From Escherichia coli (lineage in GTDB: Bacteria > Pseudomonadota > Gammaproteobacteria > Enterobacterales > Enterobacteriaceae), in NCBI RefSeq assembly GCF_044324785.1, contig NZ_CP172127.1: DNA of 64,000 nucleotides. One strand, written 5' to 3'. The notes under the pieces are model-generated. The model worked only from the letters and a program-made list of their open reading frames with translations. It was not told the DNA's origin and did not search any database. Shown here piece after piece: positions 12,729-58,575 of the stretch. The position numbers and the translations under genes are program-made. How positions within the stretch are numbered: position 1 is the first letter of the stretch; each line of letters opens with the position of its first letter.

Positions 12729-13994
12729 ATGGCGCTACCTGCAGAAAGCCTTATTGCGCATACGCTCAGAAAAATGAAGGCCAGCATGGCAGAGAAAGCC
12801 AGTCGTGAGGACGGGAGGATACGCAGTGGGCTGTTGTTTACCGGCAATGTTCACGATTCGTATCCCCGCAGGCTGTTGCTGGATACGCGCCTTTCTCCCC
12901 TTGATAAAACTGCGTGGATGATGATTCGTCTGCATGCCCTGAATAATGAGGGCGCAGTATTTCCGACGTACGATGAACTGCAGTTACAACTGGCATCTCC
13001 CGGGCGCGGGAAGGCGTCCCGTGAAACAGTGAGCCGGGTGCTGACAATGCTGCGGCTTACGGGCTGGCTGAGTCTGTGTAAGCGGGTCAGGGATGAAAAA
13101 GGGCGGGTCCGGGGGAATATTTACGCCCTGCATGATGAGCCACTGACCTGCTGTGATGCAGAAAAGTTTGACCCACGATACCTGGATATGGTTCTGGATA
13201 CTGTGAGCAGGAGCCGGAACAAGACAATCCGGCACACAGCCAGTGAAGTGCTCAGTGATATCAAAAATGAGCCCGGTATGCGGCATTACCACAGCCATAT
13301 CACTCTGTTTGAATCGCGTATGGGGGCAGCACAGACACCTGGTCAGCTGGCGGCGCGTCAGCGGGTGAACCCGATGGTGAATGAAAACACAGGCAGAGAG
13401 AGTGGTTCGGATTCCGTACATACCCCTGCACCTGTCGTGCAGGTAACCGAACTCAGTGCTCCGTTAACCGAACTCAGTGAAAAACAGGAAATGAGCCCAC
13501 TCAGTTCGGATTCCGTACTTCCTGAAAAATCAGTAACTTATCACTCGGTTCGGAAACCGAACAATTACGTACGTAATATCACACACAGTGTGATTAAAAA
13601 TACGTACGTATTGCCTGAGTCGGTGAAATCGCAAATCAGCGCAGAAGACACGGACATGCTGACAAAACAACTGCAGGCGTTGCCGGAAGAACTGGCAGGT
13701 AGTGTGCTGAGCAGCCTGTTACAGATGCTCAGCAAAAACACGCTCCAGAATCCGGTTGGCTGGATGCTGGCTGTGATGAAACTTGCGCGTGAGGGACGTT
13801 TTAATACGCCGGATATGTCCGTGCATGAATCCCGGTCGCCAGCCCGTGCACCATATCAGCCTGTGTACAACCGTGATGAACGTGAACGTCGTCGCGGGAA
13901 AGTGGCGTCACCTGAAACGGTGAGCAACATTGTCGCAGAATTCCGGGCCAGCCTGAAACGTGCAAATGCTGCCCGTCTGGCGGCGCGTGTGTGA
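12729..13994 (+). CDS. Putative ICE replication initiator (winged-helix Rep-like; SPI-7 STY4528-type family by recall)
   Basis: SD AAGGAG before ATG 12729; N-terminal HTH/winged-helix-like segment; internal peptide repeats coincide with DNA repeats/palindromes; followed immediately by a 36-bp tandem array. Confidence 0.7.
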   Translation: MALPAESLIAHTLRKMKASMAEKASREDGRIRSGLLFTGNVHDSYPRRLLLDTRLSPLDKTAWMMIRLHALNNEGAVFPTYDELQLQLASPGRGKASRETVSRVLTMLRLTGWLSLCKRVRDEKGRVRGNIYALHDEPLTCCDAEKFDPRYLDMVLDTVSRSRNKTIRHTASEVLSDIKNEPGMRHYHSHITLFESRMGAAQTPGQLAARQRVNPMVNENTGRESGSDSVHTPAPVVQVTELSAPLTELSEKQEMSPLSSDSVLPEKSVTYHSVRKPNNYVRNITHSVIKNTYVLPESVKSQISAEDTDMLTKQLQALPEELAGSVLSSLLQMLSKNTLQNPVGWMLAVMKLAREGRFNTPDMSVHESRSPARAPYQPVYNRDERERRRGKVASPETVSNIVAEFRASLKRANAARLAARV

Positions 13995-14008: not shown

Positions 14009-14836
14009 TCTATGGCGCTACTGGCACCATAGTACAAAAAATGAGCGATGGTGCCACTGACACCACGGTATAAAAAATGAGCGATGGTGACGCTGGCACC
14101 ATAGTACAAAAAATAAGCGATGGTGCCACTGGCACCATAGTACAAAAAATGAGCGATGGTGCCACTGGCACCACGGTATAAAAAATGAGCGATGGTGCCA
14201 CTGGCACCACGGTACAAAAAATAAGCGATGGTGCCACTGGCACCACGGTATAAAAAATGAGCGATGGTGCCACTGGCACCACGGTACAAAAAATAAGCGA
14301 TGGTGCCACTGGCACCACGGTACAAAAAATAAGCGATGGTGCCACTGGCACCACGGTACAAAAAACGAACGATGGTGCCACTGGCACCATAGTACAAAAA
14401 ATAAGCGATGGTGCCACTGGCACCACGGTACAAAAAATAAGCGATGGTGCCACTGGCACCACGGTACAAAAAACGAACGATGGTGCCACTGGCACCATAG
14501 TACAAAAAATAAGCGATGGTGCCACTGGCACCATAGTACAAAAAATAAGCGATGGTGCCACTGGCACCACGGTACAAAAAATAAGCGATGGTGCCACTGG
14601 CACCATAGTACAAAAAATGAGCGATGGTGCCACTGGCACCACGGTATAAAAAATGAGCGATGGTGCCACTGGCACCACGGTACAAAAAATAAGCGATGGT
14701 GCCACTGGCACCATAGTACAAAAAATGAGCGATGGTGCCACTGGCACCACGGTATAAAAAATGAGCGATGGTGACGCTGGCACCATAGTACAAAAAATAA
14801 GCGATGGTGCCACTGGCACCATAGTATAAAAACGAA
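14009..14836. repeat. Tandem array of ~22-23 copies of a 36-bp unit, each containing a 17-19-bp palindrome (A)TGGTGCCACTGGCACCA(T) plus an A-rich spacer
   Basis: Directly visible periodicity of 36 bp across ~830 bp with minor unit variants (cggtac/tagtac, ataa/atga/acgaa, gtgacgctg). Confidence 0.95.
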
Positions 14837-15657: not shown

Positions 15658-17676
15658 ATGCGTCTCTATTTATGTGAAAAACCTTCACAGGCCGCTGATA
15701 TAGCCAGAGTACTTGGGGCTGCCAGACGTGGTGATGGTGCGATTGAAGGTAAGGACTTTGTTGTGACCTGGGCCTTTGGTCACTTGCTGGAGCAGGCGCC
15801 ACCGGAGGCGTATGGTGAACAGTTTGGCAGCCCCTGGAAAATTGACGTTTTGCCGGTCTTTCCTAAACAGTGGAAGATGGTGGTGAAGGATAATGTCGGG
15901 AAGCAGTTTAATGTGATCAGCCGCCTTCTCCGTAAGACTGATGAAGTGGTGATTGCCACTGACGCCGATCGTGAAGGCGAAATTATCGCAAGGGAACTGC
16001 TGGATTATTGTGGTTATACCGGCGTTGTGCGCCGTCTCTGGCTGTCCGCACTGGATGAGAGCAGTATCAGGGAGGCGCTGGGCAGAATACTGCCCGGAGA
16101 GGAGACCGAGAAGTTATATGAAGCCGGTAAGGGACGCAGCCGGGCTGACTGGCTGACGGGGATCAACCTGACGCGTCTGTATACCCTGAAAGCCAGGGGG
16201 TGTGGTGTGTCCGGCGTCCTCTCTGTTGGCAGGGTGCAGACGCCCACGCTTGCGATGGTGGTCAGACGGGACGCGGAAATAAAAAATTTTATTCCGGTAC
16301 CTTACTGGCAACTGTATCTCTGGCTGGAGAAGGATAATGTGCGTTTTCGTACCACCTGGATTGCGGCAGCGCAGTACTGCGATACTGAAAAACGGTGTGT
16401 GAATGTGCAGGCGGCAACAGCCGTCCTGTCACAGTGTCGTCAGGCAGGTGTTGCTGTTGTCAGGGATGTCAGCAGCAGACGGGAGAAAAAGCAGCCTCCG
16501 CTGTGTTTTTCGCTCGGAACGTTGCAGGAGGTCTGTTCGCGCAAATTTGGCCTCGGAGCGCAGGCTGTTCTTGATATAGCCCAGTCGCTGTACGAAAAGC
16601 ATAAGGCGACAACATATCCGCGTACAGATTGCGGTTATCTGCCGGTATCAATGCACAAAGAAGTGCCTGACGTACTGGCGGCGCTGGAAAAAACCGATCC
16701 GGATATTGCCACGGAGCTGGCAAAACTCAGTCCTGATATTGTGTCGGGGATCTGGAACGACAGGAAGATCACCGCGCATCATGCGATAATCCCCACCCGT
16801 CAGCCGTTTAATATTGTGGCGCTGAGTGATAATGAGCTTAAGGTGTACCGGTTAATTCGTCAGCATTATCTGGCTCAGTTTTTACCCATGCAGGAGTCGG
16901 ATGTCACAGAGGCCACATTTCTTGTTGCGGGGCAGTTGTTCGGAACGCGGGGACGGGTGGAGGTTGTCAGGGGATGGCGTGCGCTTTTTGTGTCAGATTC
17001 GGCGGGAGAGGAAGAGGATGTTGCAGACGATGAGCAGGCGATGCCCCTTCCCGTACTGGCAAAAGGTGATGAATGTCGTCCTGCTGAAGCTGAACTCAAA
17101 GAGATGCAGACCACGCCACCACGTCATTATACGGAAGGCACGCTGATTGCGGCGATGAAAAATGCTGCGGGTATGGTGAGTGATCCGGCACTGAAAAAAG
17201 TGTTACGCGAAAATGCGGGGCTGGGTACTGAAGCGACCCGCGCAGAAATACTGGAAACGTTGTTCACCCGCAAATATATCGAGAAGCAGGGTAAGCATAT
17301 CCGTGCCACGCAACTGGGGGCGGAGCTGATAGCGGGATTGCCGGAGGCGCTGACCAGTCCGGGAACAACGGCGCTGTGGGAACAGGCTCTGGATGATATT
17401 GCACAGGGTAAACTGTCACTGTCGTCATTTATGGAGAAGCAGAAACAGTGGCTTAACCACCTGGTGGCCGGTGCAAGGCAGCAGCCACTGCAGATCACGG
17501 CACCGGTTACGCCTGCATGCCCTCTTTGCAGGGGAAGAATGCGGAAAGTGAAGATGAAAAGCGGGAAAGGGGAATTCTGGAGTTGTCAGCGTTATCCGGA
17601 GTGTAAGGGAGTGATTTCAGAGCAGAAACCGACATCCGGGAAACGGGGCGGCAGAAAAATTAAAAAGCGTGGATGA
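15658..17676 (+). CDS. topB: DNA topoisomerase III
   Basis: TOPRIM (IATDADREGE), topo IA core (SVGRVQTPTLAMVV), C-terminal zinc ribbon (CPLCRGRM...CQRYPECKG). Confidence 0.9.
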   Translation: MRLYLCEKPSQAADIARVLGAARRGDGAIEGKDFVVTWAFGHLLEQAPPEAYGEQFGSPWKIDVLPVFPKQWKMVVKDNVGKQFNVISRLLRKTDEVVIATDADREGEIIARELLDYCGYTGVVRRLWLSALDESSIREALGRILPGEETEKLYEAGKGRSRADWLTGINLTRLYTLKARGCGVSGVLSVGRVQTPTLAMVVRRDAEIKNFIPVPYWQLYLWLEKDNVRFRTTWIAAAQYCDTEKRCVNVQAATAVLSQCRQAGVAVVRDVSSRREKKQPPLCFSLGTLQEVCSRKFGLGAQAVLDIAQSLYEKHKATTYPRTDCGYLPVSMHKEVPDVLAALEKTDPDIATELAKLSPDIVSGIWNDRKITAHHAIIPTRQPFNIVALSDNELKVYRLIRQHYLAQFLPMQESDVTEATFLVAGQLFGTRGRVEVVRGWRALFVSDSAGEEEDVADDEQAMPLPVLAKGDECRPAEAELKEMQTTPPRHYTEGTLIAAMKNAAGMVSDPALKKVLRENAGLGTEATRAEILETLFTRKYIEKQGKHIRATQLGAELIAGLPEALTSPGTTALWEQALDDIAQGKLSLSSFMEKQKQWLNHLVAGARQQPLQITAPVTPACPLCRGRMRKVKMKSGKGEFWSCQRYPECKGVISEQKPTSGKRGGRKIKKRG

Positions 17677-17908: not shown

Positions 17909-17940
17909 GGTATTGACTTTCTTTATGTGAGCTTTAAATA

Positions 17941-18270
17941 TGGCAGGGCTAACTTGTCGCTCCGGCGACCACCAATGTTCCATAGTGGCCTGTGAGGAAC
18001 GCCTTCGGGTGGCCCATGTCGCTTCAGCGACCACCAATGTTCCATGTGGCCTGTGAGGAACGCCTTCGGGTGGCCCACGTCGCTCCGGCGACCACCAATG
18101 CTTCATCTGACCTGTGAGGAGCGCCTTCGGGTGGTCAGTTTTACACCTCCTGAGCCTGAAAGGAGCTGTGCGTACTGAAGGGATATATTCCCGGAAGTAC
18201 GGGCAAATCTGCACACCTTTGAGAGCAGATGTCACTGCGGTTTTCCGTGATGATGAAGGCTTTTTTTACT
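17941..18270 (+). repeat. Structured ~320-bp element, copy 1 of 3 (three ~61-bp tandem units plus hairpin-rich tail)
   Basis: Unit gtcgctccggcgaccaccaatgttccatgtggcctgtgaggaacgccttcgggtggcccac x3, then tail with CTCCT/AGGAG, GTACT/AGTAC, ATCTGC/GCAGAT stems; near-identical at 46163 and 48465. Confidence 0.85.
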
Positions 18271-45342: not shown

Positions 45343-45996
45343 TCACTTTTCTTTTGTGTCAGTGGGTACTGCATTGTTTATTAGCCACGGCAATTGTTGA
45401 TTACCCTGTATTTTTCGGATGTAGTTATCAATAATATCTTTTGTTTCATCACTATTATTATAAAAAGATTCAAGTGTGCATATAAAATCATCATTTAATG
45501 CAGGTAGCAGGATTATGTTTTTTACTGTGAACCGGATATGACGATTACTCAGTGTTTTTAAATAAAGTTTCTTTCCAATAACAGGATTTACATTGAAAAT
45601 ATTGTAACAGATTTCCACTGTGTTTTCTGAAGGTGCGTATAATACGTATACCGGATATTTTTTATGAAGTTTTATCAGGCAATTTATAAAGTCTAAGGAA
45701 TTTGTTTGTTTTGCTTTTTCTCGCATCTTATTTACGTGTTGCGAAAAGAAATATGCTTTTGTAAATATAAAAAGAAAAATAAGCGCAGTGTTTAACAGAA
45801 ATGTGATGGCAATTGTTATAAATAACCATTTACCTGAACCTGTATTAAAGATATGGGATGAAAGATACCCACCTGTCAGCAACAAAAATATAAATAATAA
45901 TGACTGCATTTTTTCCTGGTTGTTTATTGATGATTTCAGACACAGAAATATAACAACACATGCAAAGCTCCAGAAAAATATAACAGCAAAATCCAT
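45343..45996 (-). CDS. Hypothetical membrane protein (3 N-terminal TM helices plus soluble C-domain; low GC)
   Basis: SD AAAGGTGA before ATG 45996; strongly AT-rich relative to ICE backbone. Confidence 0.55.
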   Translation of the reverse strand: MDFAVIFFWSFACVVIFLCLKSSINNQEKMQSLLFIFLLLTGGYLSSHIFNTGSGKWLFITIAITFLLNTALIFLFIFTKAYFFSQHVNKMREKAKQTNSLDFINCLIKLHKKYPVYVLYAPSENTVEICYNIFNVNPVIGKKLYLKTLSNRHIRFTVKNIILLPALNDDFICTLESFYNNSDETKDIIDNYIRKIQGNQQLPWLINNAVPTDTKEK

Positions 45997-46162
45997 ATTA
46001 TCACCTTTTGTCTGACAGTTCATTTGTTGATGCTATCACGATATTCGCGATGCGGTAAATATATCAATATGTTGGTTTATTTGTGTAATACATTATTTCC
46101 CATATGCCATAAATCAGTCTGTTGACGATAGCTTTTTTCTTTTGTTATTCTGTTCCCGCATT

Positions 46163-46478
46163 AACTGTCGCTTCGGCGACCACCAATGTTCCATGAGGCC
46201 TGTGAGGAACGCCTTCGGGTGGCCCATGTCGCTCCGGCGACCACCAATGTTCCATGTGGCCTGTGAGGAACGCCTTCGGGTGGCCCACGTCGCTCCGGCG
46301 ACCACCAATGCTCCATCTGACCAGTGAGGAGCGCCTTCGGGTGGTCAGTTTTACACCTCCGTAGCCTGAAAGGAGCTGTGCGTGCTGATGGGATATGTTT
46401 CCGGAAGTACGGGTAAATCTGCACACCTTTGCGAGCAGATGTCACCACGGTTTACGTGATGATGAAGGCATTCCGGAT
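46163..46478 (+). repeat. Structured ~320-bp element, copy 2 of 3
   Basis: Same three-unit plus hairpin-tail organisation as 17941-18270, with a few substitutions. Confidence 0.85.
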
Positions 46479-47175
46479 TTCGTCCGGTACTTTTACTTTT
46501 TCTCAGCAGACTTTCATAAAAAATGCTTTATGGATCTGCGTCTTAACATATTTTCTGACTTTCCGCATAAGCTTCTTATGACTGTGCGCACGGCATAAGG
46601 CCATTTGAAATTTGGCCGCTTGCGTGTGTACGTGGAGTTTGAAGCAGTGCATGCGTCACTTTTGTCGGCGTTCACGCTGACAAAGTGACGCATGAACGTC
46701 GACTCAACGAACCCGCATAAACAGGCTCTTCACGGGATGTTTTTTAACATTTGAAGAAGTGACCTGACGTGATCGTTTTTTTTCAACTTCATTCTGTTTC
46801 GTAGTGACGTCTCTCCGGTAAAACTTCCGGAAAAACGTCAGTCAACAGAATATCATTGTTTTTTAAGGAGTTTAATGTAGTGAGATGCCGAATCGGCGAT
46901 ATATCTGACAGGCAGATATGTCGGGGGCGACCTTCAGAGGTACAGTTAATTCTGCGGCCGGTTAAACTAACCGGCTTGACACCCCGCAAAACCTGAACAC
47001 TTTGCGTTACCCTGACGCACAGGCACTCACTCACCGAAGGAACGTAACGAAGAACCGTGTCGTCAGGTGAAATGCAGATGAATTCTTCTGTTGTGTTCAC
47101 GGCACAACAGAAGAATTCATCTGTGTTGTGTGCTGCTGTTTTGTTTAGGTCATAGGTCATAAGGAGAATGTACAG

Positions 47176-48081
47176 ATGTCCAGACGTGAGAAATTGCTTA
47201 AAAAGGATCTGGTTGCTCATGTCCGAAAAGAAAAGGGGAGTTTTAAAAAGTTAAGTGACTATACAAGGATTATGCATCGATTCGCTGAAACGCTTGCTCG
47301 TCTGAATGTACAGATTAGTTCTGCTGCACAGTTAAAAGTTCGTCACATTGAATTATATATGAACAGCAGGACGGATGTATCAAAACGAACGAGAGAAAAT
47401 GAAATGTCAGCAATACGCGCGGTTTTACGTCAGGTTGGTAAGAATAAACTTGCCGATCCCAGCCATCCACGGCTGAGTAATAAAGCATTAGGTATTTCAG
47501 GTGAGAGTCGTAAAGGTACGAAAAGTCTGATTACAGACGATCGTTTTCGTGAAATTCTTCAGCGCATTGAACAAAAAGATAAAGGACTCGCTGCAACGGT
47601 TAAATTGTCGCGTTATCTTGGTCTGAGAAATGAGGAGGCCATTCAGTCCGCCAAATCGCTCAAAACATGGAAACAGGCATTAGAACGGGGAGATGAAAAA
47701 TTACGTGTTATTTTTGGTACGAAAGGCGGTCGTGAGAGAATGACCACGATTGTTGACAGAAATAATGTTATTGAGGCTGTTAATTATGCTATTAAATATG
47801 CCGGTGAGCATGACGGGCGATTAATCGACAGAGGTAATCTTAAGTCTGCAATGAATTATTATCTTAACTCATTGCGTCGTTATGGTGAAATGAAAGGCGG
47901 TGATGAGACACCACATAGTTTTCGTTACAGTTATGCCGCAAGTGCAATGAAATACCATATTATGAATGGTTACAGTTATCATGAAGCGCTTGCATTAACA
48001 TCTATGGATCTTGGTCACGGTGACGGCAGAGGACGTTATATCGAGCAGGTATATTGCCAGTTGTTAGGACATGAAGAATAG
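47176..48081 (+). CDS. Tyrosine-recombinase/integrase-like protein
   Basis: SD TAAGGAGAA before ATG; candidate catalytic residues R (LGLRNEEA), HxxR (HSFRYSYA), Y (GRGRYIEQVY); family by pattern only. Confidence 0.55.
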   Translation: MSRREKLLKKDLVAHVRKEKGSFKKLSDYTRIMHRFAETLARLNVQISSAAQLKVRHIELYMNSRTDVSKRTRENEMSAIRAVLRQVGKNKLADPSHPRLSNKALGISGESRKGTKSLITDDRFREILQRIEQKDKGLAATVKLSRYLGLRNEEAIQSAKSLKTWKQALERGDEKLRVIFGTKGGRERMTTIVDRNNVIEAVNYAIKYAGEHDGRLIDRGNLKSAMNYYLNSLRRYGEMKGGDETPHSFRYSYAASAMKYHIMNGYSYHEALALTSMDLGHGDGRGRYIEQVYCQLLGHEE

Positions 48082-48121
48082 CTGTTATTATATTGTAGCC
48101 ATTTTCTTAAAAGGGACCGTT

Positions 48122-48415: not shown

Positions 48416-48464
48416 ATTTTTTTGTTGTTCTTCCACGTAGTTTGTGCTTACAATTTAAACGCTA

Positions 48465-48775
48465 ACTTGTCGCTTCGGCGACCACCAATGTTCCATGTGG
48501 CCTGTGAGGAACGCCTTCGGGTGGCCCATGTCGCTCCGGCGACCACCAATGTTCCATGTGGCCTGTGAGGAACGCCTTCGGGTGGCCCACGTCGCTCCGG
48601 CGACCACCAATGCTTCATCTGACCTGTGAGGAGCGCCTTCGGGTGGTCAGTTTTACACCTCCTGAGCCTGAAAGGAGCTGTGCGTACTGAAGGGATATGT
48701 TTCCGGAAGTACGGGCAAATCTGCACACCTTTGAGAGCAGATGTCACTGCGGTTTTCCGTGATGATGAAGGCTTT
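48465..48775 (+). repeat. Structured ~320-bp element, copy 3 of 3
   Basis: Near-identical to copy 1. Confidence 0.85.
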
Positions 48776-48901
48776 TTTATCACTGTATGACCTGAGTTAT
48801 CTCTGGTCCTTAAGCACATCGTGTTATCGCATTGATGTGTTCACCTGACGGATTTTCCAGTCCGTCAGGGCGGAACGTCCGTCTTTTATCCGGAGGTTCC
48901 A

Positions 48902-53412: not shown

Positions 53413-56328
53413 TTACTGAGTCAGTTTTTTTATCAGGTCGTGAATTTTATCACCTGAAAACTGGGTCATGAAAGTTATCTTTATGGATTTACTGATTTGT
53501 TCGAAGAGTTTCTGTGCATGTTTTATTTTATCGCGTTCTTCATGTCTGAGTTCACGTTTGCCATCAACATTTTTGGTTTCAATAATAAGGTTCAGATAAT
53601 CACCCTTTGACGTGTTTACAACATAAGCGAAGTCAGGGGAGTAAGTGTATCCTCCCGCTACAGGAATTTTTATTGAATTTTTGGGGATCTTTGTGAAGAC
53701 AATGACTGACCTGACCTCACCCTCTGTCATATTGAGTTTTTCAAGTTCTGAATCATAAAATACTTCTTCAAAAAGATAAGAGTCCAGTGGAGGGCTTGTA
53801 TTATCCTGTAAAACGCCAAGATCACTTGACAATACATCAGCAAGATAACCGCCGTCTGCATTGGTGAATTTCGTGGGATGGACAGTTCCTGATATTACAT
53901 TATACCCAAGGCTGAATTTACTGAACGAGTTATTAAGCAAATACTTGCTGAAACCAGATTTAATTTTTCTGATTGTCTGAATGTTAAGGTATTCAGTTAT
54001 ATTTATGATGTCTTTTATATCACAAAAAACCTTATGCATGGTGTCATGTTTGACAAAAATAGTCTGTGATAATTTATCAAGGAATTCACGATAGCTCATT
54101 GTGTTTATTTTGTGAAAATTATCCTCATCAACACTGAGAATGCTTTTCGACATTGCCGTATCATTATGGATATAAATTCTTTCAATACGAGTATGAGCAC
54201 CGGATTTGGTAAATCTGTCTGCTTCTTCCAGCATAAACGCTCTGAAAAGGGATAAAAACTCACGTTCACTTTTTATTTTATACTCAATCACGACCTTTTG
54301 ATTGATCAAGTCCCATAGTTCTTTCAGCTCACTGAACTTACCAACACGCATTTTAGTGCGTCTTTTTCCATCAGAGGCTTTTTTTATTTTGCCTGGTTTC
54401 ACTCCTGCAGGAAATGCTGCCGGATATCTGGCTTTTAAGCGGCTATAGGCATCTGAATCTTTGAAGTTATCATTATCATCAATGATCTCATCACCAAAAA
54501 TTTCATTCAAGAGTGTTCTGGAGGAAAGCTCCGGATATTGAGACAGGATTTTATCCTTAAGCTCCTGAGTAAACTTACCTGGAACAGTCTCTTTGAAAGA
54601 ACTATCGTTGATCTCTTTGACAAGAGAATCGACAAAATCTTTTTCTGTAAAATCAACATAATAGTTGAGGGTAAAATTGCGGTCTTTCACACGACACATG
54701 TATTCATTCACCGGAAGACGTAAACCACGCCCTACTTCCTGAAGTTTAGATGTGGTGCTACCGCTCGAACGGAGCTTACAAATCTGAAAGACATTTGGGT
54801 TATCCCATCCCTCACGCAACGTCCATTTAGAGAAAATGAAACGGCGAGGATTTTCTAAAGACAATAGAAGCTCTTTATCATGAAGGATTTCGTTGATTTC
54901 CTGCTCAATTTTATCATCTTTATCACTATTATCTTTTGAAAAATAACCACCATGAACAGAAGATATATCCTTAACAGTTTTTTCAAGGTAGTTTCTGTAA
55001 AACTCATCTTTTTCTGTTTTTAACAGTTCATTTGCTTCTGCCAAAACGTATTCTTCGAACTTAGTTTTCAGGCTTCCTGCAATATCATTACCATCACGAT
55101 AGCCTTCAATGTCATCAATGAAGAAAAGAGTAAGAGGTTTTATGCGTGGCCTTTGTGTCAGATACTCTTTTTCTAACTTAAAGTGTTCTTTGACAGCTTT
55201 ACGTATCATGTTATCAGCAAGTGTCTGATCGTAAGAATAGGGGTTTATCGAACTACCAATTTTTAGCTCAATACCATTACTCAACACTGCTGTATTCTTA
55301 TTTAAAGCATCAAGAGTTAAATCATGGATCGCACTATGCGTCTTAGATAGTGATTCACCTTTGGCTAACTTAAAAATTTTTTTATTATTATTTTCGTTCA
55401 GTTCAAATGTAGCTTCTTTTCCGTCAGATTTGACCAACTTGAGGTTGGCATTACCATCACCAACTATATCCTCAATGTATGCATCAATACCTTTAACAAG
55501 ATCTTCATTGAAGGCATCTACGGCTGTAAGACGATAAACTAAGTTCTTATAGCCTTCACTAAAGGTTGCACCATAGCGGATGATATATTGGGCATTAAAT
55601 TTTTGAATATGTTCCCATGTCTTTTTACCAGTAGGAAATTTATGAGGCTCATCAATGATAATGAATGGTTTTATCGCACTAAGTGCAGAAAATGGGGTAT
55701 CAAACTGATTATTAAGCAAGCCAACATCATAAGTGTCAGTTAAAGACTTAGAGTTAATCATCCCTGAATTGATCACAAGAATGTGTATATATTTCTTATT
55801 GAAATTACTTGCTTCAACAAAATCATGGATAGCTTGAGGTATATACGATTTTGTATTTTTACCCGAACGTTTCTGACTTTCAACAACGTAAGTCTTTAGT
55901 TCACGCTCGTAATCATCTCGAAAGTGTTCTTTTATAGCATCGCTTTTTAAAAAGTTAACGGTTCCGGCTTTGATCGATAGGGTAGGAACAATGATGATAA
56001 ACTTGTTAATACCAAATGATTTGTTCAGGTCAAAAATTGTTTTGGTGTAAGTATAAGTTTTACCTGTACCTGTCTCCATAGAAACATCAATTACGTTGCT
56101 TTTAGCATCGTAATTATCTTTTGAGTGCTCAATACCATTGAACTCCTGAACATTTTTTATGTTGTTGTAGTATTGTTGTTCAGATAGATTCAGTTCTGGA
56201 TTAGCTAACAGGCGAATTGCAACATGATCCGTCTGATGAGGTATGGCGGATACAAAGACATTCATTACCGAATCAACGCCAGCCTTTTGATGAGGTAAAT
56301 TTTTTTCGAATGTGAACCCTTTAGACAT
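53413..56328 (-). CDS. res: Type III restriction enzyme Res subunit
   Basis: 971 aa; helicase Walker A METGTGKTYT, DEAH-like IIIDEPH, motif VI QEVGRGLRL, C-terminal PD-(D/E)xK; low GC; immediately downstream of mod. Confidence 0.85.
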   Translation of the reverse strand: MSKGFTFEKNLPHQKAGVDSVMNVFVSAIPHQTDHVAIRLLANPELNLSEQQYYNNIKNVQEFNGIEHSKDNYDAKSNVIDVSMETGTGKTYTYTKTIFDLNKSFGINKFIIIVPTLSIKAGTVNFLKSDAIKEHFRDDYERELKTYVVESQKRSGKNTKSYIPQAIHDFVEASNFNKKYIHILVINSGMINSKSLTDTYDVGLLNNQFDTPFSALSAIKPFIIIDEPHKFPTGKKTWEHIQKFNAQYIIRYGATFSEGYKNLVYRLTAVDAFNEDLVKGIDAYIEDIVGDGNANLKLVKSDGKEATFELNENNNKKIFKLAKGESLSKTHSAIHDLTLDALNKNTAVLSNGIELKIGSSINPYSYDQTLADNMIRKAVKEHFKLEKEYLTQRPRIKPLTLFFIDDIEGYRDGNDIAGSLKTKFEEYVLAEANELLKTEKDEFYRNYLEKTVKDISSVHGGYFSKDNSDKDDKIEQEINEILHDKELLLSLENPRRFIFSKWTLREGWDNPNVFQICKLRSSGSTTSKLQEVGRGLRLPVNEYMCRVKDRNFTLNYYVDFTEKDFVDSLVKEINDSSFKETVPGKFTQELKDKILSQYPELSSRTLLNEIFGDEIIDDNDNFKDSDAYSRLKARYPAAFPAGVKPGKIKKASDGKRRTKMRVGKFSELKELWDLINQKVVIEYKIKSEREFLSLFRAFMLEEADRFTKSGAHTRIERIYIHNDTAMSKSILSVDEDNFHKINTMSYREFLDKLSQTIFVKHDTMHKVFCDIKDIINITEYLNIQTIRKIKSGFSKYLLNNSFSKFSLGYNVISGTVHPTKFTNADGGYLADVLSSDLGVLQDNTSPPLDSYLFEEVFYDSELEKLNMTEGEVRSVIVFTKIPKNSIKIPVAGGYTYSPDFAYVVNTSKGDYLNLIIETKNVDGKRELRHEERDKIKHAQKLFEQISKSIKITFMTQFSGDKIHDLIKKLTQ

Positions 56329-56330
56329 GA

Positions 56331-58367
56331 TTAGTTCCTTACCACCAAATCTAAATCAATAGATTTTTTATTAGCATAACTTTTTAGTGCTTCATTGAGT
56401 TCCATCTGTTTCGCACTTTCGAAGTTGCTGCCATAAAATACAACTTTGTTAGGGGCAAAGTCTTTGTCTGCATCCAGCTTTTGAAGTAAAGCTTTCAAAG
56501 CCTCACTTGTGAAATTAGGCGCAATTAGATATAGCCGACCATCGCACAAGTGTGCTTTGTAGCCATTAAGGTCAATATCTTCAATTGGTGTTGTTAGCAA
56601 GCTGCCATCATACACGCACCATGTCGTCAATAGAGTGTCATACTGCTCTGGTGTCAATACAGCATCGTCAAAGAAACTAAGATTAGAAAGCGTAAGTTCA
56701 GACTCATCTTTCACTCGAAAATCATGAACTGTTTCAAATATTTTAAATCCCAAATCTCCATTATAATTAGGATTATCTTTTTTCAGCTTTTTTCCTGCCT
56801 TAATAATTCTGTCTTTTGTTATATTGAAGATGGATTTATACCCTTCTTTATAGGCTTGTTTCTTTTTATCTGTTTCTTCATCTAATTGAACACAGATGAA
56901 GTTTCTTTTCCTGCCGTCTTCAATATTTAACTCCAGAATACCATGAGCTGTAGTTCCAGAGCCAGCAAAAAAGTCAAGATAAATGTCTTTATCTTCGGTT
57001 TTTACTGAACCAAATAGTGTTTTTATTAAACTTGTTGGCTTCGGGTAGGAGAAATATCCTTTCCCACCAAAAAGATTTTCAACCTCAACACCACCATCAC
57101 TTTTAGTTGAAATAATTGATCTTAGTAAAAACTCTTCAACTTCATCTAAAAATTTAACCGAACTGGGTTGGGTGTTTTCTGTACTGGCAAACCAAATTCC
57201 ACCACAAATAACGCTACCATCATGTAGTTTTTTGATATCTGCATACTTTCCATCTATTCTTTTTGCAATATGATTAAAAGTGCCTTCTTTCCAACGCCAG
57301 CCTCTGTCTGGGATTTTGACAGGGTTATTAGTCAAAGGGTGCAATACTTCATACGTGGGTCCAAATGAATCTGCATTAGGCCAGCTCATATTAATTTTAC
57401 CCCATGGCCTATAATCTTCGTTCAAACAGTTGTAAAGAGTAATTCCACGATCATATCCGTTGGAGCTGTAGAATTTTTTGAGTTGCTGCTCTGCTTTATC
57501 TAATGGCACCTTCTCCTTTTTTAACTTTTCAATAAACTGATATACATCATCAATACCATCTTTCCGCATTAAAAATTCTTTACTTATTTCGTTATTCTTC
57601 GCATAAGCAAGGATGTACTCATGGATATTACCAATACCCTTATCATTTTTAGGGATACGTTTATTCCATACAATATTTTCTATGAAATTTGCTTCGCCAA
57701 AAATTTCATCACAAATAGTTTTAAGTTGATTTAATTCATTTTCGTCAATCGAAATAAATATCACACCATCTTCACGTAGAAGCTCACGAGCAATATATAA
57801 ACGAGGATAAATGAACGTTAACCATGCGCTATGGCTGCTTGAACCATTCGTGGTAAATTCAAGTATACGTTTAGCCTCATCAAGATCGATACCTGCCAGA
57901 TCAGAAAGCTGTTCAGGTGTAAACTTGCGATCATCGTTATAGGCGAATCCATCCTTACCTGTATTGTATGGTGGATCAATGTAAATCATCTTCACCTTTT
58001 CAGAGTAAGCATTAACCATATGCTTCAATACTTCGAGGTTATCCCCTTTGATTAACAGATTCTGACTGTTTTTGTTCTCTTCACGTTGGTTATGGTCTTT
58101 ATCTTCGGAGAGTAATGTCTTCGGCGGCAAGTTAGCTAACAGACGGGCATAGGATTTACCAAGCCAGTTCAGGCTGTATGATTCTTTGGAGAGTTCAACA
58201 TCCGATGATTTGACGATTTCAAGCAATTTTTCCTGAATGAACGCTCCATTTTTATCAAAACACTGTGGAAAGTTAGCCTTTAAAATCGCAAGCTGTTTAC
58301 TGTTTGTGGTTTCAGTTTCAGAGAAAAGAGTTTCTTTTTTCAGTTGAAATTGGGGTTGTGTATTCAT
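56331..58367 (-). CDS. mod: Type III N6-adenine DNA methyltransferase Mod subunit
   Basis: Motif IV DPPY (MIYIDPPYNTG) preceding motif I FFAGSGTT (beta-class order); SD GGAGGTG 5 nt before ATG 58367; mod-res order. Confidence 0.85.
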   Translation of the reverse strand: MNTQPQFQLKKETLFSETETTNSKQLAILKANFPQCFDKNGAFIQEKLLEIVKSSDVELSKESYSLNWLGKSYARLLANLPPKTLLSEDKDHNQREENKNSQNLLIKGDNLEVLKHMVNAYSEKVKMIYIDPPYNTGKDGFAYNDDRKFTPEQLSDLAGIDLDEAKRILEFTTNGSSSHSAWLTFIYPRLYIARELLREDGVIFISIDENELNQLKTICDEIFGEANFIENIVWNKRIPKNDKGIGNIHEYILAYAKNNEISKEFLMRKDGIDDVYQFIEKLKKEKVPLDKAEQQLKKFYSSNGYDRGITLYNCLNEDYRPWGKINMSWPNADSFGPTYEVLHPLTNNPVKIPDRGWRWKEGTFNHIAKRIDGKYADIKKLHDGSVICGGIWFASTENTQPSSVKFLDEVEEFLLRSIISTKSDGGVEVENLFGGKGYFSYPKPTSLIKTLFGSVKTEDKDIYLDFFAGSGTTAHGILELNIEDGRKRNFICVQLDEETDKKKQAYKEGYKSIFNITKDRIIKAGKKLKKDNPNYNGDLGFKIFETVHDFRVKDESELTLSNLSFFDDAVLTPEQYDTLLTTWCVYDGSLLTTPIEDIDLNGYKAHLCDGRLYLIAPNFTSEALKALLQKLDADKDFAPNKVVFYGSNFESAKQMELNEALKSYANKKSIDLDLVVRN

Positions 58368-58425
58368 AACGCACCTCCAGAATGCACGGAGGTACTTGAC
58401 GCGGAATTTTTATACAGGCATATTG

Positions 58426-58575
58426 TTGCGTTGCGTTGCGTTGCGTTGCGTTGCGTTGCGTTGCGTTGCGTTGCGTTGCGTTGCGTTGCGTTGCGTTGCG
58501 TTGCGTTGCGTTGCGTTGCGTTGCGTTGCGTTGCGTTGCGTTGCGTTGCGTTGCGTTGCGTTGCGTTGCGTTGCG
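58426..58575. repeat. Perfect pentanucleotide repeat (TTGCG)x30; (CGCAA)x30 on the mod-sense strand
   Basis: 150 bp of uninterrupted 5-nt periodicity, 58 bp upstream of mod ATG, preceded on the sense strand by ATG-AAA with SD GAGG. Confidence 0.95.

Follow-up and report, generated by a model that had tools for sequence, protein, structure and literature searches.

We analysed a 64,000-nucleotide (64-kb) stretch of Escherichia coli DNA (contig NZ_CP172127.1), hereafter the window, which by its gene content represents an E. coli integrative and conjugative element (ICE) of the SPI-7/pKLC102/ICEclc type, and within it the 0.7-kb gap between a repeated structured element and the gene of an Integrase_1-family tyrosine recombinase (Table 1). 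The structured element, described as copy 2 by the initial annotation, is the Rfam family STAXI, with scores of 68.6 bits (46166-46287) and 61.9 bits (46288-46461) against a gathering score of 40.5, and the gap behind it holds a clear, though sub-threshold, element of a second Rfam family, EFASI (RF02957). The gap is the catalogued arrangement of STAXI and then EFASI ahead of a recombinase gene (together, the module), and our finding is thus an instance of something already catalogued. Beyond the Rfam models, the region has a promoter at a fixed offset from STAXI, a hairpin with an invariant base, a further helix (helix X) and a palindrome whose arms covary.

Table 1. Features of the STAXI-EFASI-recombinase module and its immediate surroundings in the window.
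Feature	Position	Strand	Description
sigma-70-type promoter of STAXI copy 2	46122-46151	+	-35 TTGACG (46122-46127), 18-nt spacer, -10 TATTCT (46146-46151); promoter scan
STAXI copy 2	46166-46461	+	RF01728; three 61-nt pseudoknot units (46166-46348), then tail with final hairpin
Weak terminator-like hairpin	46473-46503	+	CCGGAUUUCGUCCGG, then U-rich tail; terminator scan
Conserved hairpin	46599-46617	+	GGCCAUUUGAAAUUUGGCC, inside a larger stem (~46584-46631)
Invariant-base hairpin	46653-46691	+	base GCGTCACT / AGTGACGC; bulge on 5' arm; variable, covarying top
Conserved block	46735-46792	+	contains small hairpin AUGUUUUUUAACAU (46737-46750)
Hairpin GACGU...ACGUC	46806-46839	+	seen in fold and sequence
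AAGGAG, then ATG-TAG (start directly before stop)	46865-46880	+	immediately 5' of EFASI
EFASI-like element, ICE-type subfamily	46878-47031	+	RF02957; 46.3 bits, E = 3e-8, full model 1-133 (permissive Rfam scan)
Helix X	47010-47068	+	CCCUGACG (47010-47017) pairs with CGUCAGGU (47061-47068); outside the Rfam EFASI model
Long hairpin (perfect palindrome)	47074-47124	+	21-nt arms 47075-47095 / 47103-47123, loop UUCACGG, stem extended by G·U
Shine-Dalgarno sequence AAGGAG	47161-47166	+	9 nt before ATG 47176; read from sequence
Integrase_1-family tyrosine recombinase gene	47176-48081	+	301 aa; Pfam PF12835 (5e-56), PF12834 Phage_int_SAM_2 (2.5e-23)
STAXI copy 3, including promoter	48425-48773	+	-35 TTGTTC (48425-48430), -10 TACAAT (48449-48454), U6 terminator

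Three STAXI arrays lie in the window (17955-18261, 46166-46461 and 48468-48773), all on the plus strand, which is also the sense strand of the recombinase gene and of nearly all ICE genes, and each array consists of three 61-nt tandem units and a tail. Copy 1 is flanked by TopB (15658-17676) and STY4534 (18386), copy 2 is followed by the Integrase_1 gene, and copy 3 closes the module and heads a gene block that includes ArdA. The units of copy 2 start at 46166, 46227 and 46288 (identity 100%, 97% and 82%), each with the GUUCC/GGAAC complementarity of the pseudoknot. The window agrees with the published description of STAXI (RF01728; Weinberg et al. 2010, PMC2864571) in its scores above threshold, its three tandem pseudoknot units with UUCG loops and its location in an enterobacterial element beside topoisomerase III, an Ssb-region gene, antirestriction genes and XerDC-like integrase genes. 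To this we add a near-universal fixed-offset sigma-70 promoter and, often, an intrinsic terminator; nothing essential differs.

The promoter, with a TTGAcA-like -35 and a TAnnnT -10, precedes 20 of 22 STAXI arrays drawn from 12 sources. In 19 of these 20 its -10 ends 12-14 nt ahead of the first STAXI nucleotide (26 nt for the array at 2146 of locus L020), and the sequence of the spacer varies from array to array. For copy 2 the predicted transcription start falls at ~46158, ~7 nt before STAXI. Copies 1 and 3 end in a hairpin with a clean U tract (U7 and U6, respectively), and the copy 2 version of this terminator is degenerate. Copies 1 (17915-18270) and 3 (48425-48785), each with its own promoter at the same offset, resemble each other more than they do copy 2.

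The gene behind the gap, initially described as tyrosine-recombinase-like, indeed encodes a two-domain tyrosine recombinase. R151, K183, H247-x-x-R250, H281 and Y288/Y293 show no variation among 14 diverse homologues, and the protein combines the R-K-HxxR-H/W-Y set with a core-binding and catalytic fold; its AlphaFold model (mean confidence, pLDDT, 89) was matched by Foldseek to XerA, lambda Int, Tn1549 Int, XerH and Cre. Judging from this modelled fold and the residue set, it is plausible that the protein is an active simple tyrosine recombinase. A sequence search of the PDB returned no solved relative, the literature searched held no functional study of an Integrase_1 recombinase, and to our knowledge no member of Integrase_1 has a known recombination activity. 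A phage origin of the family was considered and rejected, as it is essentially absent from 50,697 phage records.

The gap itself carries no coding sequence, in agreement with the initial annotation. Six-frame translation of 46462-47175 at 11 loci revealed no open reading frame (ORF) that keeps its frame or length; for example, a 37-aa plus-strand ORF of the E. coli ICE relative L011 stops after 7 codons in the window. Substitutions relative to the relatives fell on the three codon positions as 43/37/43 in the non-coding stretch, against 42/14/125 in the adjacent gene, and we accordingly rejected a coding explanation. Short ORFs overlap EFASI on both strands because the nucleotides themselves are conserved there, and 143-aa and 67-aa ORFs had no match in NCBIfam. 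Overall divergence is the same for both (79% for the non-coding stretch, 80% for the gene); the stretch diverges as slowly as the gene, and is thus non-coding but constrained. The folded plus strand of 46462-47180 reached -270 kcal/mol (z = -13.0) and the minus strand -250 kcal/mol (z = -8.2), a difference of 20 kcal/mol in favour of the plus strand; the stretch is far more folded than shuffled sequence would be.

We compared the region with E. coli ICE relatives of ~79% identity (L011-L013), a decayed O157 ter/ure island (L003), six loci from other species found by protein search (L005-L010), seven loci found through 54-75% identical proteins (within L014-L023) and two plasmids (L026, L027). 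In more than 20 loci the order is fixed and on one strand: sigma-70 promoter, STAXI, invariant-base hairpin, EFASI, recombinase gene. These loci come from Escherichia, Salmonella, Klebsiella, Citrobacter, Kluyvera, Phytobacter, Dickeya, Erwinia, Tatumella, Morganella and Yersinia, and the distance from the start of STAXI to the start codon ranges from 700 to 1160 nt. Most ICE-type loci also have a small ORF and/or a further STAXI array after the recombinase gene; of 12 ICE-type and plasmid loci whose downstream DNA was scanned, 10 showed such an array (L011-L014, L018, L020-L023 and the window); L027 had none within 8.9 kb, that of L026 was ~8.8 kb away, and L016 ends at a contig edge.

The settings of the module differ widely. 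In ICEs it follows TraG_N or, in one deleted ICE, directly TopB; elsewhere it neighbours a P4-type integrase at tRNA-Phe or tRNA-Asn, or sits amid the tellurite-resistance (ter) and metabolic cargo of Klebsiella IncFIB/HI1B plasmids. Therefore, the non-coding stretch travels with the recombinase gene rather than with conjugation genes. The proposal that it is functionally tied to that gene is borne out in that the same ordered elements precede Integrase_1 homologues at every locus examined.

Some of these settings deserve separate mention. The deleted ICE is that of E. coli CFIAFB20190167 (L012, 5694-10626), where the module directly follows TopB and the ~28 kb between window STAXI copies 1 and 2, type IV secretion genes included, are missing; this looks like a deletion through recombination between direct STAXI arrays. 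In the E. coli O157:H7 EDL933 record NZ_CP124742 (L003, 5744-6524), STAXI (134 bits), the invariant-base hairpin and EFASI are kept and the recombinase gene is replaced by unrelated sequence; the upstream neighbourhood matches 43.8-46.0 kb of the window (type B L31 and a 226-aa membrane protein). In the tRNA-Phe/tRNA-Asn islands of six species (L005-L010, ~1300-2350), the module lies 1.3-2.3 kb downstream of the C4 antisense RNA, its a1/b1 targets and isrK-like RNAs, and the recombinase gene is back to back with the tRNA-adjoining P4-type integrase. Occasional proximity of STAXI to c4 RNAs has been noted before (PMC2864571). The IncK2/Z plasmid pE32-3 and similar plasmids carry a 330-bp piece, 93% identical to 46751-47080, between IS100 and an IS3-family element (L002, 6001-6328); this remnant consists of the conserved block and EFASI, without a recombinase gene. 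Plasmid matches at 87-93% identity (IncK2/Z and the EDL933 "plasmid") were rejected as functional evidence, being remnants flanked by insertion sequences or a decayed ter/ure island.

The first inverted repeat of the gap reported by the initial annotation, TGCGTCACTTTTGTC...GACAAAGTGACGCA, is real (46652-46692, arms of 14-15 nt) and corresponds to the invariant-base hairpin. One copy per module was found in all 22 loci that retain this part of the module, across about ten genera; the truncated IncK2/Z remnants (L002, L004) are without it. Its bulged nucleotide is the 11th in 12 of 16 folded examples and the 12th in L016, L018, L021 and L022, and the top covaries, with T-A replaced by G-C at stem position 10 and by C-G at position 9 in L007. 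The hairpin matched no Rfam family, and no second GCGTCACT...AGTGACGC hairpin was found in the 64-kb window. It is the sole element whose sequence invariance suggests recognition by a protein.

EFASI, for "Enterobacteriaceae, Frequently Around STAXI and Integrases", according to the description in Rfam lies some hundreds of bp downstream of STAXI and upstream of integrase genes (PMC12370729). The window copy fits this description with its full-length match: it starts 417 nt past the end of STAXI (~420 nt downstream) and ends 144 nt before the Integrase_1 ATG, on the same strand. It differs in score and in its surroundings. Its 46.3 bits are below the gathering score of 51.2, and orthologues at the same position form a continuous series, from 50.2-54.9 bits in E. 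coli ICEs (46-55 bits with the window copy) through 59-88 bits for those of other ICEs and of plasmids to 100-120 bits where islands adjoin a tRNA gene; and it is accompanied by an extra 3' helix, an AGGA-loop hairpin and the long hairpin. All consensus helices form in the cmscan alignment, with four non-canonical pairs flagged. The window copy is a member of a divergent ICE-type subgroup that straddles the Rfam threshold.

The extra helix, helix X, joins a CCCYGRYG sequence in the 3' part of EFASI to CRYCRGGG 43-60 nt downstream, and was present in 17 of 17 intact loci. Because it crosses the closing helix of EFASI, it would form a pseudoknot or else belong to an alternative fold. When all EFASI regions were aligned with MAFFT and analysed with RNAalifold, next to no consensus structure emerged for either strand; the alignment was poor, and individual helices were therefore tested on extracted segments, which carries a slight bias towards pairing for helix X. 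Across 12 distinct sequences, 97.9% of the helix X cells are paired, three of the eight pairs show compensatory change and nine cells are G·U or U·G, against only 33-49% of cells paired when the 3' partner is slid by 1-3 columns. The 3' strands also align in an alignment built blind to pairing.

Just 3' of the EFASI model (47032-47060), most ICE-type loci have a short AGGA-loop hairpin, for example GCGC-AGGAU-GCGC in L014. AAGGAG-like motifs recur in STAXI and ahead of EFASI, where an A(A)GGAG(A) motif stands at 10-14 nt in all loci. An ATG-stop (TAG or TAA) follows it only in the window, L003, L011-L013, L014 and L016, and no ORF after the ATG-stop of 46865-46880 is conserved across the relatives.

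The long palindrome upstream of the recombinase gene is likewise perfect and real, but it lies ~10 nt to the left of the position first given for it, its loop has 7 nt (TTCACGG) rather than 8, and it ends 52 nt, not ~40 bp, before the ATG. Chance does not account for its arms (no match in 100 shuffles). In the six loci that have it, 99.2% of the cells of 22 pairs are paired, and eight pairs show compensatory change, with six G·U cells and not one A·C cell. The window and Phytobacter arms, for instance, differ at many positions and are still complementary, with the loop unchanged. The scan for consensus terminators flagged this hairpin in the window (tail GTGTTGTGTG), and the orthologues have CTGTACGTAC or CCGTAATGAT after the stem, without a U tract.

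A recombination site of the adjacent recombinase, or its operator, had been proposed here; as a site in double-stranded DNA, the palindrome would be either a crossover site of the lox, FRT or dif kind serving multimer resolution or an operator of the gene. Its form suits such a role: inverted arms surround an asymmetric 7-bp spacer (TTCACGG in five of six loci) 52 bp upstream of a gene for a two-domain tyrosine recombinase, as in Cre/loxP, ResD/rfsF and XerCD/dif; the sites of Cre and ResD are generally known to lie upstream of the gene as well, and the module behaves as an autonomous unit in plasmids and ICEs. Unlike those sites, however, the palindrome is not conserved with its recombinase. 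At least 11 loci whose recombinase genes are intact and catalytically complete lack it (L020, L022, L023, L026, L027 and L005-L010), so that the absence from functional relatives named beforehand as counting against the idea was in fact seen, and L018 and L021 have a different long hairpin in its place. Its arms change freely, through G·U pairs and through double substitutions that compensate each other (8 of 22 pairs), as a folded strand would and not as a conserved recognition sequence, and at 21 nt they exceed known core arms. No other copy of an arm, and thus no partner site, occurs in the 64-kb window with up to three mismatches, which matters less for multimer resolution, as this would need no second site on a monomer. 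We therefore consider that the palindrome is not the essential site of the recombinase, being missing from many intact relatives and single in the window, and regard a duplex crossover site or operator as very improbable. Within the family, this hairpin is an optional add-on.

The strand on which these structures form bears on their nature. All wobble cells are G·U on the plus strand (six in the palindrome, nine in helix X), where the minus strand would have A·C mismatches; together with the folding energies and the promoters, this favours the gene-sense strand, and hence RNA. The promoters and terminators of STAXI point the same way, towards an RNA reading that was left open when the family was described (PMC2864571), where UUCG tetraloops were also noted to favour RNA over DNA. 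STAXI and EFASI RNAs have been detected by reverse transcription quantitative PCR (RT-qPCR) in vesicle preparations of Shiga toxin-producing E. coli (PMC12370729). The leading genes of F-like plasmids are transcribed from the transferred strand as their template (PMC11541004); by this analogy, the sense strand here would not be the strand that enters recipients.

Taking together these elements, their invariant order, their co-inheritance with the gene, their covariation and preference for the sense strand, the fixed promoters and the lack of a coding signal, we read the region as a ~1-kb structured non-coding leader RNA that controls the Integrase_1 recombinase gene, with a probability of roughly 0.55. 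The sigma-70 promoter at 46122-46151 would initiate ~7 nt before STAXI, and a partial stop at the degenerate STAXI terminator would yield a STAXI RNA of ~300 nt. Read-through would then take transcription via the hairpins at 46599-46617 and 46653-46691, EFASI with its helix to 47061-47068 and the hairpin at 47074-47124 to the ribosome-binding site and the ATG at 47176. We infer that EFASI and the recombinase mRNA arise from such read-through since no positionally conserved sigma-70 promoter was found between the invariant-base hairpin and EFASI. The leader structures may set the amount of recombinase through termination and read-through, folding of the 5' untranslated region, processing, or some combination of these. 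In particular, the perfect duplex of 22-27 bp would be a plausible substrate for RNase III, cleavage of which might part an EFASI-containing RNA from the recombinase mRNA. Comparable systems are the long hairpins cleaved by RNase III that control integrase or early mRNAs, namely sib in the retroregulation of lambda int and the early R sites of T7: here, too, a mobile element has an integrase ORF next to a perfect RNA duplex no shorter than 20 bp. The hairpin of the window, however, lies 5' rather than 3' of the gene and is optional in the family, and its cleavage is hypothetical.

Several observations weigh against such a leader. The terminator looks strong in STAXI copies 1 and 3 and in L011 and L013, so that read-through of it is an assumption and EFASI may have a promoter invisible to a sigma-70 scan. 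The 8-bp base of the 46653-46691 hairpin is fully invariant even though the recombinase proteins are only 46-50% identical, which looks like sequence-specific recognition by a protein, possibly of DNA; the recombinase might thus bind DNA, at this hairpin above all. G·T pairs and hairpins are compatible with single-stranded DNA of the plus strand too. The RT-qPCR detection was made from vesicles and leaves the transcript ends undefined (PMC12370729). Our analysis identified no ligand, protein or small RNA (sRNA) partner of the leader. Finally, the Rfam curators deem EFASI likelier to act in trans (PMC12370729).

That last opinion belongs to a wider alternative, in which STAXI, EFASI or both are free-standing RNAs that act in trans, as sRNAs, protein sponges or anti-defence decoys early after entry of the ICE, and their adjacency to the recombinase gene reflects co-inheritance only. 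STAXI has its own promoter, many of its copies close with a hairpin and a U6-7 terminator, and its arrays head three separate ICE gene blocks (TopB/STY4534, recombinase and ArdA), all of which would suit RNAs made for their own sake, as would the detection of both. EFASI fits it less well: in all intact loci it lies on the gene strand 64-157 nt before the Integrase_1 start codon, helix X binds its 3' part to sequence 33-120 nt from that codon, and neither side of it has a positionally conserved promoter or terminator. Since EFASI stands directly upstream of the gene in every locus examined, action in cis fits better than the trans role favoured by Rfam, and we think it rather unlikely that these are trans-acting RNAs. 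The AGGA-loop hairpin just 3' of EFASI and the AAGGAG motifs around it would also suit a protein sponge, as their GGA/AGGA loops resemble CsrA/RsmA sites, a resemblance of motifs only.

The invariant-base hairpin, and perhaps the long hairpin, might alternatively function as folded single-stranded DNA while the ICE is transferred or replicated, either as substrates or loading sites of the recombinase, on the model of attC or of the CTX-phage attachment site, or as priming signals for the complementary strand. Such a role for STAXI was raised in the original paper (PMC2864571). ICEs in general have a single-stranded stage, and the hairpin strictly co-occurs with a recombinase that is catalytically intact by its residues. 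Its invariant base, paired and covarying variable top and bulge held on one arm form a pattern that we take to be like that of integron attC sites with IntI and of CTX-phage attP with XerCD, likewise worked by a tyrosine recombinase. The differences are considerable, however. The strand favoured here is the transcribed, sense strand, which by the F-like analogy is not the entering one (PMC11541004), the transferred strand of this ICE family being itself taken from analogy. Promoters are placed to transcribe exactly these elements, the module persists in non-conjugative settings such as plasmid cargo and decayed islands, and each element has a single copy of the hairpin, with no partner site identified and no cassette-like organization. 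We accordingly hold a role as folded DNA to be improbable.

A related idea is that the leader (STAXI, the bulged hairpin and EFASI with helix X) is more than an untranslated region and serves the recombinase as a dedicated nucleic-acid partner, either as an RNA that binds and licenses or directs it or, through the hairpin, as an attC-like folded single strand on which it acts when the ICE is transferred or replicated. As an RNA, it would by analogy be the tyrosine-recombinase counterpart of the IS110 bridge RNA, which is encoded upstream of its recombinase. We rate this as quite improbable, and keep it in view because of the strict one-to-one co-inheritance and the invariant 8-bp base of the hairpin.

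The initial annotation had also considered that the region is, or adjoins, the origin of transfer (oriT) or nick site of the ICE. The genes ArdA, ArdC, DUF1281, an orphan methylase, RadC and CbtA in the relatives are leading-region-like neighbours, and inverted repeats are typical of oriT regions. However, in the complete ICE of NZ_CP135671, which is 99.3% identical, the genes for a TraI-domain relaxase and a UvrD helicase lie ~24.6 kb from the module, adjoining int and tRNA-Phe; proximity of relaxase and oriT is usual, not obligatory. The module also follows the recombinase into settings unrelated to transfer (the cargo of IncFIB/HI1B ter plasmids, the ends of tRNA-Asn/Phe islands and the decayed O157 island), and covariation on the transcribed strand explains all of its structured elements. 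The accessible literature gave no published oriT coordinates for this enterobacterial ICE group, so that an oriT at or near this location counts as unsupported, not as disproved; we judge it highly improbable.

The Frpo/ssi promoters of F and ColIb-P9 (Samuel et al. 2024, PMC11541004) are comparable in that structured elements recur in one orientation before ssb, antirestriction and methylase blocks. In Frpo, a long hairpin of the transferred strand, which is the template, restores the -35 and -10 boxes; the promoter here, by contrast, is an ordinary duplex promoter. A Frpo-like promoter was rejected, since the minus strand of 45990-46300, folded as DNA, left the promoter segment unpaired and at -37.2 kcal/mol (z = -0.45) did not exceed shuffled sequence in structure; the lack of such a hairpin on the template strand counts against an oriT here as well.

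Both STAXI, first described in 2010, and EFASI, which entered Rfam later, occur widely among enterobacterial ICEs and pathogenicity islands and in some plasmids. The anatomy added here joins the parts into a single conserved unit, fixed in order, with its own promoter, folding on the sense strand and two more covarying elements; what was a loose genomic association thereby becomes one on which specific and cheap experiments are possible. The unit heads the antirestriction and establishment block of SPI-7/pKLC102-type ICEs, which bear virulence and resistance genes, and its control could bear on the establishment of these ICEs in new hosts.

The remaining hairpins of the gap are less prominent. 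The one at 46599-46617 is kept across ICE-type loci, with a compensatory GACC...GGTC in L012 and L003, and appears in both the minimum-free-energy and the centroid fold. The block at 46735-46792 is near-identical in the window, L011, L012 and L003, and in other loci the position of 46737-46750 is taken by a hairpin that differs in sequence (for example GTTGTTAACAAC in L020). The hairpin at 46806-46839 is not conserved in L011 and L012 and was for that reason given low weight. The GTGACG/ACGTCA motifs noted earlier in the gap are present (GTGACG at 46654 on the minus strand and at 46685 and 46804 on the plus strand, ACGTCA at 46834 on the plus strand), but they are mostly just hairpin arms, the 46806-46839 hairpin accounting for those outside the invariant-base hairpin; with 54 copies of GTGACG in the whole window, their enrichment in the stretch is modest.

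Further genes identified in the window are ParA, an SPI-7-type DnaB, ParB, STY4528, topoisomerase III, STY4534 and a type III restriction-modification system. The chromosome of E. coli TUM9803 matches a 2-kb query covering the module (46100-48100) at 99.3% identity. There, ICE transfer genes of the TIGR037xx families with TraG_N lie upstream of the module, and downstream of it come ArdA, DUF1281 and a cluster for a type IVb pilus/shufflon; genes for an integrase, a TraI-domain relaxase and a UvrD helicase stand where the element ends, at a tRNA-Phe.

Two repeat arrays lie elsewhere in the window. Just past the gene of the STY4528-family island replication protein (12729-13994), a 36-nt tandem unit is repeated 22.8 times (14012-14832, 91% match); it could be an iteron or centromere-like array, presumably comparable to the repeat-rich oriV of pKLC102, and the long minus-strand ORFs over it may be artefacts. 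At 58425-58577, a perfect GTTGC pentanucleotide repeat of 30.6 copies stands directly 5', on the minus strand, of a type III methyltransferase-like ORF (56331-58367, minus strand), which adjoins a type III restriction endonuclease gene (53413-56328, minus strand). Together, repeat and ORF give the ICE what looks like a phasevarion, a type III mod gene subject to phase variation.

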